This document shows positions 3,067 through 35,711 of a stretch of 44,403 nt of DNA, one piece after another. The stretch is from an uncultured Clostridia bacterium. Its GTDB lineage: Bacteria; Bacillota; Clostridia; Christensenellales; UBA1242. A program made the position numbers and the translations under genes. The stretch covers positions 1 to 44,403 of the forward strand of contig CAMUJQ010000001.1 of assembly GCA_947089305.1 (NCBI GenBank). Reading direction: 5' to 3'. Position 1 is the first letter of the stretch. Every line of letters starts with the position of its first letter. The notes beneath the pieces are model-generated. The model saw only the letters and a program-made list of their open reading frames with translations, made no database searches and had not been told where the DNA came from.

Positions 3067-4113
3067 TTAAAGCGGCAAACTTGAAACTGCAACAAGGTCA
3101 CTATCGGCGCAAGCCGCAGTTTTTTCATTCATTAATTTAAAATACCCTTCACTTGCAATCATTGCTGCATTATCAGTGCATAAATTTAAAGGTGGAACAA
3201 TTAATTTAATTTTATTTTGTTCACAACTTTTTTTAAATTCCTCCTTTAAATAATTGTTAGCACTAACTCCTCCACATATTACAAGTGTTTTAGATCTACT
3301 TTTTTTAACTATAGGAATAACTTTTTCCAACAATTGTTTTATCGCTAAGGTTTGAAAAGTGTATGCAACATCTGCAACAACAATTTCTTCTTTTTTATTA
3401 AGCATATTATTAACATAATTTAAAACAGCTGTTTTAAGACCGCTATAACTAAAATTATCTTTTTTATTATCGCGATAATTTAATGCAATCATATTTTTTC
3501 CGTTTTTTGCAAGGCGTTCAACATTTGGTCCGCCAGGATAACTAAGTTTTAATACTCGAGCAACTTTATCAAAAGTTTCTCCAATCGCATCATCTAAAGT
3601 TGTTAAAAGCATTTTTTGTTTAGTGTAAGTTTTAATTTCAAGCAGTGCAGTATGTCCACCAGAAACAACTAAACTATAAAAAGGCGGTTTTAATTTTTTA
3701 TCTATTATGTAATTAGCTGCAATATGCCCGCGAATATGATTAACTGCAATTAAAGGAATATCTAAACTTTCTGAAAGTGCTTTTGCATAGTTTACGCCAA
3801 CCATTAACGCGCCAATTAGTCCTGCTCCATAAGTAACAGCAATTGCAGATATATCTTCTTTTTTTATACCTGCTGTTTTTATTGCTTCATCAACAACATT
3901 GTTTATTGCCATAATGTGATTTCTACTTGCAACTTCAGGAACAACTCCACCAAATTTCTTGTGAATGTCAATTTGACTAGAAACAATATTGGATAAAACT
4001 TCTCGGCCATTTAAAACAATACTTACACTTGTTTCATCACAACTAGATTCAATTCCTAGAATAATACATTTGTTTTTAAAACTTTTTAATTCTTTTTTGG
4101 TAACTTTTCTCAT
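3067..4113 (-). CDS. tsaD: tRNA N6-adenosine threonylcarbamoyltransferase TsaD (Kae1/Gcp family)
   Basis: 348 aa containing ILGIESSCDETSVSIV, GVVPEVASRNH and the HIRGHI metal-binding motif, all classic for TsaD. Its start codon overlaps the upstream stop by 1 nt (TAATG). Confidence 0.92.
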   Translation of the reverse strand: MRKVTKKELKSFKNKCIILGIESSCDETSVSIVLNGREVLSNIVSSQIDIHKKFGGVVPEVASRNHIMAINNVVDEAIKTAGIKKEDISAIAVTYGAGLIGALMVGVNYAKALSESLDIPLIAVNHIRGHIAANYIIDKKLKPPFYSLVVSGGHTALLEIKTYTKQKMLLTTLDDAIGETFDKVARVLKLSYPGGPNVERLAKNGKNMIALNYRDNKKDNFSYSGLKTAVLNYVNNMLNKKEEIVVADVAYTFQTLAIKQLLEKVIPIVKKSRSKTLVICGGVSANNYLKEEFKKSCEQNKIKLIVPPLNLCTDNAAMIASEGYFKLMNEKTAACADSDLVAVSSLPL

Positions 4114-7451: not shown

Positions 7452-7528
7452 GCGCCGCTAGCTCAGCTGGATAGAGCGTTGGTCTACGGAACCAAAGGTC
7501 AGGGGTTCGAATCCCTTGCGGCGCACCA
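7452..7528 (+). tRNA. tRNA-Arg (anticodon ACG), CCA encoded
   Basis: Hand-folded cloverleaf. Acceptor GCGCCGC/GCGGCGC, anticodon stem TTGGT/ACCAA, loop CTACGGA, T-arm AGGGG-TTCGAAT-CCCTT, discriminator A and CCA. Confidence 0.93.
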
Positions 7529-7530
7529 GA

Positions 7531-7551
7531 AATGGCTTTCGCCATTTTTTT
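7531..7551 (+). terminator. intrinsic terminator directly after tRNA-Arg
   Basis: AATGGC-TTTC-GCCATT hairpin followed by a T run. Confidence 0.6.
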
Positions 7552-7656
7552 ATGCTTGCAAGAATTCGAGCAAGTATATTGACTTGCAATTGCACTTTGT
7601 GCAATTCCCCTGACTAAAGTCAGGGCTGACGCGTTCACTTTGTTTCCGCTATAAAG

Positions 7657-7682
7657 CGAATCCCTTGCGGCGCACCAGAAAT
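7657..7682 (+). repeat. perfect 26-nt direct repeat of the tRNA-Arg 3' end (copy of 7508-7533), attR-like
   Basis: CGAATCCCTTGCGGCGCACCAGAAAT occurs at both positions. No tRNA 5' half precedes the second copy. Confidence 0.9.
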
Positions 7683-7786
7683 ATTGTGTTTTAAACTAAT
7701 TTTAATCATATATCTAGTAAATATTTAATAAACAAAAATTTAAAAACATTCAATGTGTGAACAAAGTGTGAATAAAACATTAAAAG

Positions 7787-7808
7787 CATTCTTAGAATGT
7801 TTTTTTTT
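7787..7808 (+). terminator. intrinsic terminator downstream of the second tRNA-Arg 3'-end copy
   Basis: CATTC-TTA-GAATG hairpin followed by a 9-T run. Confidence 0.5.
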
Positions 7809-7834
7809 GACTATTAAAAATTTTATGTTATAAT
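7807..7834 (+). promoter_or_regulatory. extended -10 promoter for the inositol monophosphatase gene
   Basis: TTGACT (7807-7812), a 16-nt spacer, then TGtTATAAT (7826-7834). Confidence 0.55.
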
Positions 7835-7862: not shown

Positions 7863-8666
7863 ATGATAAGTGAATTAAAGTTTATGATTGACATAGTTGA
7901 AAAAGCGGCTTGCTTTTTAGATGAAAAAGTTGAAGTTAGAACAAAAGGCGGCGAAACTGACCTTGTTACTAATCTTGATGTGAAAATTGAAAAATTTTTA
8001 ATAAATGAAATAAAAAAAACTTACCCAACTTTTGATATTGTAAGTGAAGAAGAAAATTCACAAAAACAAGTTACAAAAAATTGTTTTATTATTGACCCAA
8101 TTGATGGCACAATAAATTTTGCAAATAATTTACCTTTATTTGCAATTCAAATGGCATGTGTAAAAAATGGCAAAACAGTGGCCAGTGTTTTAAATTTTCC
8201 TAAAATTAATGAACTTTATTATGCCGACAAAGACGGGGCATTTTTAAACGGCGAACAAATTAGTGTTAAAGTTGTTCCAATTAAAAATACTTTATATGCA
8301 ATAGATGGCACCAATAGATTACCCGCTATTGTTAGAATGAGAAAACACTCTGTAAGCATGCGTAACTTTGGCGGAGTATGTGTTTCTATGGCGTTTGTTG
8401 CAAGTGGGCGAATTCATGGTGCTGTTTTTAGATCTGATAAGGTGTGGGATTATGAACCTGGCATATTTCTTGCTAAAATGGCTGGTGCAGCAACTTTAAG
8501 CATTTCTGGCTTTCACTGTGCGGCTATGAATGAAGAATTTTTAAACATTCTTAAACTAGAAACAGCTAAAAAAGTTAACAAGCCAAAGGTATTTGTGCTT
8601 CACTCTCTAAATGCCGACACTCTTGAAACTTGGGGGGGGCGACACAAAAAGTTATTTAGAAAATAA
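7863..8666 (+). CDS. inositol monophosphatase family protein (SuhB/IMPase-like); its last 11 codons lie past the G8 tract and are probably out-of-frame tail
   Basis: It has the DPIDGT(I)NF metal-binding motif, an EE motif (VSEEE) and WDYEPG. ATG 7863 follows GGAGAG, whereas the track used TTG 7851. The frame reads straight into a hydrolase N-terminus (KVFVLHS...) before the G8 tract at 8632-8639. Confidence 0.85.
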   Translation: MISELKFMIDIVEKAACFLDEKVEVRTKGGETDLVTNLDVKIEKFLINEIKKTYPTFDIVSEEENSQKQVTKNCFIIDPIDGTINFANNLPLFAIQMACVKNGKTVASVLNFPKINELYYADKDGAFLNGEQISVKVVPIKNTLYAIDGTNRLPAIVRMRKHSVSMRNFGGVCVSMAFVASGRIHGAVFRSDKVWDYEPGIFLAKMAGAATLSISGFHCAAMNEEFLNILKLETAKKVNKPKVFVLHSLNADTLETWGGRHKKLFRK

Positions 8667-9150
8667 TGATTTAGATTGTTTTATGCCTTCATTTCCTATT
8701 CGCGAAAAAAGTAGTTACCAAGCTTTTGATGAAATTTTATCAACGTATTTAGAAAATAATAAACTTAATAAAGAATCAATTGTTATTTGTCATTCAATTT
8801 CAAACCCTTATTTTATTCGTTTTTGTAAAGAACATAATTTTGTACCCGCACACTATATTGCCGTTGCACCTAAACTTATTTATAAATACCCATTTGATAG
8901 AAAAGATTATTTTGTAAAAATTGCAAATGCGGCTTACCCTACAAAAGAAATTTTAAATTATAAAAACAAATTTAAAAATGTCTATTGCTTGTATTCAGAT
9001 GAAGACGATAATAACATAGAAGAGTTCCATCGCTTTGTAAAAGATTTTAAAGCAAGAGACATGTATTTAAAAGGCTATAACCATTTCGATGGCTACCACC
9101 GCATTTACAAAATCCCCGAACTAATAAAACTTTTAGATGAGTTAATATAA
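8611..9150 (+). CDS. YdeN/RBBP9-like alpha/beta serine hydrolase, apparently separated from its N-terminal strand by a +1 frameshift
   Basis: Candidate nucleophile Ser in IVICHSIS, with later D (SDEDD) and H (GYNHFDG) as triad candidates. The expected first beta-strand (KVFVLHSLNADTLETW) is encoded in the upstream IMPase frame, 5' of the G8 run. Confidence 0.6.
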   Translation: MPTLLKLGGGDTKSYLENNDLDCFMPSFPIREKSSYQAFDEILSTYLENNKLNKESIVICHSISNPYFIRFCKEHNFVPAHYIAVAPKLIYKYPFDRKDYFVKIANAAYPTKEILNYKNKFKNVYCLYSDEDDNNIEEFHRFVKDFKARDMYLKGYNHFDGYHRIYKIPELIKLLDELI

Positions 9151-35440: not shown

Positions 35441-35530
35441 GGAGAAATACCCAAGTGGTTAAGGGGCTCCCCTGCTAAGGGAGTAGGTCTGTTAAAGGGC
35501 GCATGGGTTCAAATCCCATTTTCTCCGCCA
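35441..35530 (+). tRNA. tRNA-Ser (anticodon GCT), class II with long variable arm, CCA encoded
   Basis: Acceptor GGAGAAA/TTTCTCC, anticodon stem CTCCC/GGGAG, loop CTGCTAA, T-arm ATGGG-TTCAAAT-CCCAT. A TCCC-GCAA-GGGA + T7 terminator follows at 35533-35551. Confidence 0.92.
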
Positions 35531-35667
35531 ATTCCCGCAAGGGATTTTTTTATTTTTAAAAATGGGATTTAAAAGGCTTTGCCTTTTTGTGCGTTATCGC
35601 ACTGAACCCATGCTCGCATGGCTGACGCTTTGCTCTCGAAAACAAGTTTTCTTCGCTTGCTATATAA

Positions 35668-35711
35668 CAAATCCCAAATTCTACCGCCAATTCCCGCAAG
35701 GGATTTTTTTT
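35668..35711 (+). repeat. imperfect direct repeat of the tRNA-Ser 3' end plus its terminator (copy of 35510-35551), attR-like
   Basis: CAAATCCCAAATTCTACCGCCAATTCCCGCAAGGGATTTTTTTT compares with CAAATCCCATTTTCTCCGCCAATTCCCGCAAGGGATTTTTTT. There are 2 substitutions and a 1-nt insertion, all in the tRNA-derived part. Confidence 0.85.

Follow-up and report, generated by a model that had tools for sequence, protein, structure and literature searches.

tRNA genes are classic landing sites for phages and genomic islands, and the integrative elements that target them were reportedly divided by Williams, in 2002, into classes according to their sublocation within the gene. Besides, there are cis-mobilizable elements (CIMEs), which are flanked by attachment (att) sites, have no recombination genes and are moved by the integrase of a related integrative and conjugative element (ICE) or integrative and mobilizable element (IME). 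An example of integration into the T-loop is mycobacteriophage Ms6, the 26-base attP/attB core of which is located in the T-loop of tRNA-Ala and which can be retargeted by editing this core (PMC1762012). The tycheposons of Prochlorococcus islands are multi-kilobase elements with integrases and cargo that leave arrays of partial tRNAs (bioRxiv 10.1101/2020.12.28.424599). Orphan tRNA fragments are routinely read as the integration scars of such large elements (PMC9897764; bioRxiv 10.1101/2020.12.28.424599). Here, we describe an insert behind the tRNA-Arg(ACG) gene in a stretch of 44,403 nt (the window), which is contig C1 of a 1.02 Mb metagenome-assembled genome from an uncultured Clostridia bacterium (106 contigs, 94% complete). 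Throughout, G-numbers denote genomes, G000 being the one that holds the window, and L-numbers denote individual contigs or loci of sister strains or relatives. With moderate confidence, we interpret positions 7534-7682 as one copy of a lineage-specific, gene-less miniature module that inserts into the T-loop of tRNA genes, acts at the DNA level and is mobilized in trans.

The intact tRNA-Arg(ACG) gene is located at 7452-7528 (all parts of this locus and of the tRNA-Ser(GCT) locus named below are on the + strand) and was recognized by ARAGORN as well as by the Rfam tRNA model (RF00005, 65.8 bits). A sequence-only reading of the window, made without database searches, had pointed to a repeat of the 3′ end of this gene, and a sequence repeat search bore this out: CGAATCCCTTGCGGCGCACCAGAAAT, which runs from C56 to CCA plus GAAAT, is present exactly at 7508-7533 (copy 1) and at 7657-7682 (copy 2), with 26/26 identical bases and a spacing of 149 nt. 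By our own estimate, 44 kb of DNA should contain approximately 2e-7 such 26-mer repeats by chance. As that reading also held, copy 2 has no tRNA 5′ half before it (ARAGORN, Rfam), and the 123 nt between the copies contain no open reading frame. The possibility of an assembly artefact, which it had raised, can be dismissed, because the same order of parts recurs in five contigs that come from four samples and were assembled independently of each other (L023, L024, L025, L027, and L044).

Copy 1 runs into an intrinsic terminator (7528-7551; AAATGGC-TTTC-GCCATTT and a T-run), which had been noticed before and was called at 7528-7549 by a terminator scan. This terminator is missing after copy 2 and therefore probably was imported together with the module. 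The trailer and terminator of copy 1 thus differ from the DNA after copy 2, as is expected of an imported replacement 3′ end, and on the att-like anatomy and the imported look of the locus the sequence-only reading was right. Next is mirror arm b′ (7554-7569; GCTTGCAAGAATTCGA), an imperfect reverse complement of the T-loop, the 3′ T-stem and the acceptor, within which the inverted T-loop copy GCAAGAATTCG reads as claimed at 7558-7568. The arm is able to pair with either repeat copy (helix P1). It is followed by hairpin A (7570-7587; GCAAGT-ATATTG-ACTTGC), by hairpin B (7588-7606; AATTGCAC-TTT-GTGCAATT), a perfect hairpin that had gone unlisted, and by hairpin P4 (7607-7625), the tetraloop hairpin already described, which consists of the reverse complement of tRNA positions 46-53 (CCCCTGAC), a TAAA loop and a direct copy of positions 46-52 (GTCAGGG). 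The conserved junction segment Y, delimited by pattern matches and alignment (7626-7656; CTGACGC, linker GTTCACTTTGTTTCC, and GCTATAAAG), occupies the place of G53-T54-T55 within this partial tRNA copy and leads into copy 2, the displaced 3′ end of the tRNA. Further downstream, at 7787-7808, a weak AT-rich hairpin with a T9 run had been taken for a second terminator. The hairpin and T-run exist, but they are too AT-rich to pass the terminator scan; they may represent the original terminator of the tRNA gene.

This insert does not stand alone. When all 35 tRNA genes of G000 were scanned, the gene's own 3′ end recurred 111-167 nt further downstream in ten cases, i.e., Arg-ACG, Ser-GCT, Lys-TTT, His, Met, Arg-TCG, Lys-CTT, Leu-CAA, Leu-AAG, and Tyr; for the rest, the scores did not exceed those of shuffled flanks. 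The copied 3′ end begins at C56 if it is free of damage, and the order of parts is shared. Usually, a terminator is followed by a mirror of tRNA positions ~58-70, which corresponds to b′ and is found in the other nine modules as well, by hairpin A (of the GCAAAC..GTTTGC type in 10/10 modules) and by hairpin B. Then come (C/T)GAACC, running on as a mirror of 46-57, a short loop and the direct copy of 46-52 (P4), and lastly CTGAC, a GC-closed linker (GAAAACAAGTTTTC in five copies), a TATAAAG-like motif and the 3′ copy. A module thus comprises both an inverted copy of tRNA 46-70, broken at 57|58 by hairpins A and B, and a direct copy of 46-76, where the CTGAC...TATAAAG segment takes the place of G53-T54-T55, with an optional linker hairpin between these two motifs. 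The direct copy stops at position 52 in 9/10 modules, the mirror reaches 57 and the repeat starts at 56. CTGACGC and GCTATAWAR are conserved across the modules, the core being constant and the arms varying with each tRNA.

The inserts are ~90-140 nt long and the duplications 21-70 nt, and the repeat of most modules extends over the host terminator, usually up to its end. The second family member in the window (35441-35711) comprises tRNA-Ser(GCT), a terminator, a long-form module, a degenerate 3′ copy and a duplicated terminator. The sequence-only reading listed none of the nine further loci, this one included, and considered the Arg insert far too small to be an element; ten inserts of similar size and identical order in one genome do not support that view. 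The inserts are too dissimilar for BLAST, which gave no match for the Arg insert elsewhere in its own genome. No conserved core was found elsewhere in the genome, nor any distant copy of a tRNA end, and the tmRNA gene is without a module.

Several other readings of the motifs were considered. The letters TTGACT do occur at 7579-7584, as reported, but a promoter reading was rejected, as the hexamer is made up of the loop and 3′ arm of hairpin A. CTGACG-18-TATAAA is promoter-like at the Arg locus only, with a spacing of 5 to 34 nt in the other copies, and was rejected too. A hammerhead-like reading of CTGACGC was discarded by eye, since it lacks core A9 as well as a GAAA/UH arrangement. An H/ACA-like guide for pseudouridine 55, or an antisense guide, was set aside, as the arms pair inside the module and the mirrors are decaying.

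To follow the locus within the species, contigs were collected via the flanking proteins from records labelled uncultured Firmicutes or Clostridia. The Arg module is fixed in this species, all five same-species contigs being filled, and the Ser and Leu-AAG loci are filled as well. An empty-site allele, for which the sequence-only reading had proposed to look, was not found among these five contigs, and no strain-level empty sites were found at the Ser, Leu-AAG, and Leu-CAA loci. In L075, where the Ser module is also present, tRNA-Ser has a 45-nt internal deletion; this gene is a pseudogene, or else the contig, which has low coverage, was misassembled. At tRNA-Leu(AAG), G000 (C73:788-845) and the sister-strain contig L077 differ by a 58-nt indel in the promoter region, which deprives L077 of a TTGACA box and is unrelated to the module.

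The history of the Arg copy can be approached through L027, a strain that is 95-99% identical and also carries the insert and copy 2. The window and L027 show 0 differences in 7452-7677 (226 nt) and 26 differing positions in 7678-7810 (133 nt), the change being abrupt and coinciding precisely with the end of copy 2, i.e., with the att-like site. The lack of differences over the 226 nt of tRNA and module is not significant as a sign of constraint, the left flank differing by 0.6%. In L027, the CCA of copy 2 is followed by the five bases AACAT, versus GAAAT in the window, so that the repeat stops at CCA in that strain. Given this difference, gene conversion with copy 1 as the donor is the best explanation for the 26-nt identity in the window; the identity of the repeats therefore cannot date the insertion and is no proof of a recent event. 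Combined with the distinct trailer of copy 1, AACAT versus GAAAT indicates imported DNA and later conversion. In this species, the module is now fixed and probably inactive. L027 (reverse complement, 1040-1253) also contains an extra insert of 158 nt upstream of tRNA-Arg, which follows a copy of tRNA positions 1-42 and includes CCTTTGGTTCC, the mirror of tRNA 37-47; compared to the window (at 7452), this is a true presence/absence difference. In G000, upstream inserts after 5′ partial tRNA copies ending in the anticodon loop, as in L027, are found at Arg-TCT, Lys-CTT, and Gln, and in relatives such upstream 5′-copy modules are arranged in tandem, e.g., in L004 with an 88-nt period.

The anticodon loop of tRNA-Arg(ACG) (CTACGGA; 7484-7490) constitutes a separate attachment core, as seen from BLASTn break points and from the junctions in L023, L024, and L026. 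L025 and the window are colinear. In L023 and L024 (= L044), the match to the window is limited to the part rightwards from the anticodon loop, with junctions at L023:5400-5640 and L024:2100-2345, and their left sides are two different foreign segments. The one in L023 holds several helix-turn-helix genes, a YpsA-like gene and a gene for a 1397-aa protein; the one in L024 encodes a 384-aa protein without assignment. L026 (reverse complement, 3336-3526) retains the left flank and tRNA positions 1-38 and continues into foreign DNA after CTACGGA. The tRNA at this left junction is left incomplete, but a full tRNA-Arg(ACG) of its own is located 57 nt inside the foreign DNA. This arrangement resembles tRNA-dependent lysogeny in mycobacteriophages, in which the common core is short, the tRNA is not rebuilt and a replacement tRNA is carried on the element (PMC10865867). 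Junctions of the same kind are found at the anticodon loop in other species (L036, L046). From the CTACGGA junctions in L023, L024, and L026, the anticodon loop thus is a live attachment site for large foreign elements. In the same part of the window, at 7863-9150, an inositol-monophosphatase gene is split into frames of 267 aa and 179 aa with a G8 run at 8632-8639. The split is also present in L025, and the gene is unsplit in L023 and L024 (428 aa) and in hundreds of relatives (~429 aa). It is a homopolymer frameshift that is either strain-variable or a sequencing error.

In the searches beyond the species, the core type of G000 was found only in its genus, of which no other species was among the genomes searched. 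The pattern CTGACGC-N4-34-GCTATAWWRCRARTC was matched five times in G000 and not once in the family's 150 other genomes, which belong to 58 genera. A comparison of the Arg region with 40 relatives gave matches to the tRNA alone, without the insert, and Rfam 15 covariance models matched only the tRNA, even at E<=10, in the window region as well as in L014, L018, and L020. The insert arm has no exact match in IMG/VR and no distant-BLASTn match in the phage collection. Two core-pattern matches in IMG/VR and 20 in JGI metagenomes were rejected as chance matches, being located in coding DNA without the hairpin layout; these two pattern scans may leave out records near-identical to the window. The sequence-only reading had suggested a search for longer elements with the same arms. 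None was found in IMG/VR, the phage collection, the JGI metagenomes, or the 150 family genomes, and neither was any autonomous element that uses the T-loop site; sister strains do contain autonomous elements, but at the anticodon loop.

Analogous modules, however, are present in related genera. At tRNA-Arg(ACG), L014, L018, and L020, from three other genera, each combine a mirror with a structured insert and with a 3′ copy that begins at C56. The identical tRNA-Arg 3′ end is found in other species with variants (L035, L042) and without an insert in at least seven, the flanks of which are not alignable. In L019 (G010; 1586-2960), a module and a 3′ copy of tRNA-Arg lie 1.2 kb downstream, after two small genes (87 and 112 aa) and a 3′-end fragment of another tRNA. 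The start of a second module comes next, which makes a cassette-like arrangement without an integrase. In G011, at least eight tRNAs carry modules, with GTGTGCG...CCAGGCGTGA...GCGGAG as a core common to five of them. In this genome, 58 core bases are identical between the Arg and Gly modules, and the mirrors of these match their own tRNA (10-12 nt exact); behind tRNA-Glu, there are three tandem units. Gain and loss are illustrated by tRNA-Gly(CCC) in eight species of this genus. The site is filled in five, among them G011 (plus a second module), G172, G170, and G146 (two tandem units), and empty in three (G168, G120, and G167). In G146, the T-loop differs and the mirror differs to match. On these sequence comparisons, the sister-genus modules have the traits of a repeated element that disseminates across tRNA genes, with gains and losses on the time scale of a genus. 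Other break points were also seen in G011: tRNA-Lys(TTT) in L082 has a 48-nt copy from anticodon-loop position 37, 199 nt downstream, and tRNA-Leu(CAG) in L102 has a 63-nt copy from the D-arm, 236 nt downstream.

No obvious enzyme accompanies the modules. TnpB (PF07282) and IS110 (PF01548) had 0 matches in G000, with control genomes positive, and no serine recombinase scored above the cut-off. The window gave no tyrosine-integrase match, in line with what had been noted, and the only PF00589 matches in the genome, on two other contigs, are truncated: a 106-aa fragment at C17:6808-7128 and one that is cut by the contig end on C65. As assembled, the genome appears to contain nothing that can move the modules. 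On contig C17 (2718-7128), the tRNA-Arg(TCG) module, the C-terminal tyrosine integrase fragment ~4 kb downstream and unrelated small genes occur together, and this stretch may be a decayed island beside the module.

In the interpretation that we prefer, the module would enter tRNA-Arg(ACG) by site-specific recombination between T55 and C56 and would supply a replacement 3′ end (C56-CCA, GAAAT, and the terminator), which keeps the tRNA gene intact and pushes the original 3′ end 149 nt downstream. The mirrors of 58-70 and 46-57 would pair with the direct copies and rebuild the target duplex, so that hairpins A and B project from one strand and the CTGAC-hairpin-TATAAAG segment from the other, at the T-loop. 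As there is no enzyme in the module and no intact recombinase in the genome, it would be moved in trans by a transient phage or island integrase, a host recombinase or another enzyme. Several points weigh against this interpretation. No filled/empty pair with alignable flanks was found for this core, and no enzyme candidate was found in an assembly that is 94% complete. The repeat in most modules spans the host terminator, where a match to a foreign att site coming in would not normally be expected. Moreover, no reading accounts for the tRNA-specific mirrors at each new target; a possibility is that these arise via quasi-palindrome correction after insertion into the T-loop. The stems behind the Watson-Crick count given below were hand-picked.

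An alternative is a functional structured RNA, be it a tRNA 3′-trailer RNA, a tRNA mimic or an antisense RNA, that is read through from the tRNA promoter. Its P1 and P4 helices would hold a double-stranded image of the T-arm and would, for example, regulate maturation or bind a T-arm-recognizing protein. The predicted fold is indeed strong (-52.3 kcal/mol for 7529-7690; z = -4.06 versus shuffles), and the same multi-helix fold is predicted for every module. Pairing is kept while the stems differ, with 8-9 arm sequences per hairpin and compensatory pairs in RNAalifold, the single-stranded motifs are conserved in one orientation only, and in the case of Arg-TCG and Met no terminator separates the tRNA from its module. 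MAFFT/RNAalifold gave a poor consensus, as the arms are not alignable by sequence, so the helices were scored by hand: 219/222 scored stem pairs are Watson-Crick and 1 is G.T, a count that is biased upward by picking the stems by eye. An RNA under selection would not be expected to avoid G.U pairs almost completely (1/222), nor to have its hairpin A+B block inverted, as is the case in the Tyr module. Furthermore, most modules lie behind a strong terminator without a convincing promoter of their own, and decay of the mirror arms and 3′ copies is seen at Ser, Lys-TTT, Tyr, and Lys-CTT. The Watson-Crick stems, the inverted block, the terminators and the decaying arms together favour DNA-level palindromes over an RNA under selection. 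The module is also present at only 10/35 tRNAs and matches no Rfam family, and the tandem arrays and the presence/absence among species within one genus look selfish rather than functional. Altogether, we consider a functional RNA unlikely.

Taken literally, the sequence-only reading would make the 123 nt an unrelated remainder between attL and attR of one integrase-bearing prophage or island, nearly all of the interior having been deleted. Its notion of site-specific tRNA integration stands insofar as the repeat anatomy fits known att sites of the T-loop class. The genome is small and deletion-prone, a truncated integrase lies 4 kb from the tRNA-Arg(TCG) module on C17, and large elements use the same tRNA in sister strains, though at the anticodon loop. 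A random leftover, however, would have to be produced ten times with the same size, hairpin order and motifs, and random decay of ten large elements is therefore an unlikely source. In addition, near-identical cores with identical boundaries occur at different tRNAs in G011, and no longer element with these arms is known from any collection searched, which makes this origin improbable. Even less can be said for template switching in place, at the palindromic T-arm and terminator, by which the 3′ region of the tRNA would be triplicated as sense (tRNA 3′ end), antisense (mirror), and sense (copy). This is the observed layout, and the repeats usually extend to the terminator end. At the Leu-CAA module, the terminator loop is flipped between the two copies (TTTT to AAAA), a classic signature, which shows that template switching does occur there. 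Yet hairpin A, CTGACGC, GAAAACAAGTTTTC, and GCTATAAAG are non-tRNA sequences common to modules at ten unrelated tRNAs, and in G011 the two tRNAs with 58 identical core bases are left unexplained, so that as a general origin it is very improbable. A bolder variant of the DNA-level interpretation is a new class of protein-less mobile DNA, in which a folded single strand would serve as the recombination site and rebuild the double-stranded T-arm of the target tRNA gene from mirror and copy, with strand breaks offset around C56-R57; we consider this conceivable, but rather doubtful. It is a similarly tentative thought that a T-arm-recognizing recombinase inserts the module, or a cassette closed by it, behind any tRNA that is copied by the arms.

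Compared to Ms6 and other T-loop elements with a tyrosine integrase, the modules have the same direct repeat from the T-loop through CCA, with an intact, regenerated tRNA at one junction and a displaced 3′ end that marks the far junction. In contrast to these elements, they have neither cargo nor an integrase inside the element or beside the att-like site, measure only ~90-140 nt, and occur as one family on ten tRNAs in one genome with a repeat that often includes the host terminator. Described attP sites are not known to have a target mirror or a conserved folded core, whereas the modules have both. CIMEs are similar in having attL/attR-like repeats at the tRNA 3′ end, in being non-autonomous and in their ability to stack in tandem. 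They are, however, kilobases long and derived from identifiable ICEs or IMEs, while no parent element or cognate integrase was found for the modules. Like tycheposons, the modules use tRNA genes as repeated integration sites in a streamlined genome, with partial tRNA copies and tandem junctions, but tycheposons have no conserved mini-core or target mirror.

More distant parallels exist as well. Integron attC sites and the attP hairpin in the (+) single-stranded DNA of CTX-phi, which imitates dif for XerCD, are recombination sites formed by strand folding. The modules likewise would rebuild a duplex target by a strand fold, occur in arrays, and in L019 stand behind small gene cassettes; they have no IntI, their target is a tRNA gene, and the likeness is one of anatomy. 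MITEs (miniature transposable elements with inverted repeats), repetitive extragenic palindromic sequences and bacterial interspersed mosaic elements (REP/BIME), and Rickettsia palindromic elements occur at many kinds of sites and have fixed terminal repeats and short target duplications. They resemble the modules in being short, non-coding, hairpin-rich, multi-copy and lineage-specific. Unlike these, the modules, ten in number, are all located at T55|C56 of tRNA genes, and their terminal arms copy the target, so that fixed terminal inverted repeats with a short duplication are absent. Finally, some elements encode guides, such as the bridge (seek) RNAs of IS110/IS1111 and the TnpB omega-RNAs of IS200/IS605. 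These share with the modules a conserved folded scaffold with target-matching segments, but within a module the arms pair among themselves, and G000 encodes neither IS110 nor TnpB.

Full-text literature searches and Rfam yielded no account of modules of this kind, and the module apparently is an undescribed miniature insertion element, kin to tRNA-targeted integrative DNA. Nearly one third of the tRNA genes in this 1-Mb genome bear a complete, stereotyped, enzyme-less module that copies and mirrors its target. If the modules are mobile, the most conserved part of tRNA genes is subject to a further recombination activity, and the choice of target is encoded in the fold of the element itself. 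Should the folded-strand variant be true, they would form an integron-like, self-addressed cassette platform on tRNA genes across small-genome bacteria. For genome annotation, orphan tRNA 3′ ends of this kind are not evidence of former prophages. The modules also point to sites where small gene cassettes can gather in reduced genomes.

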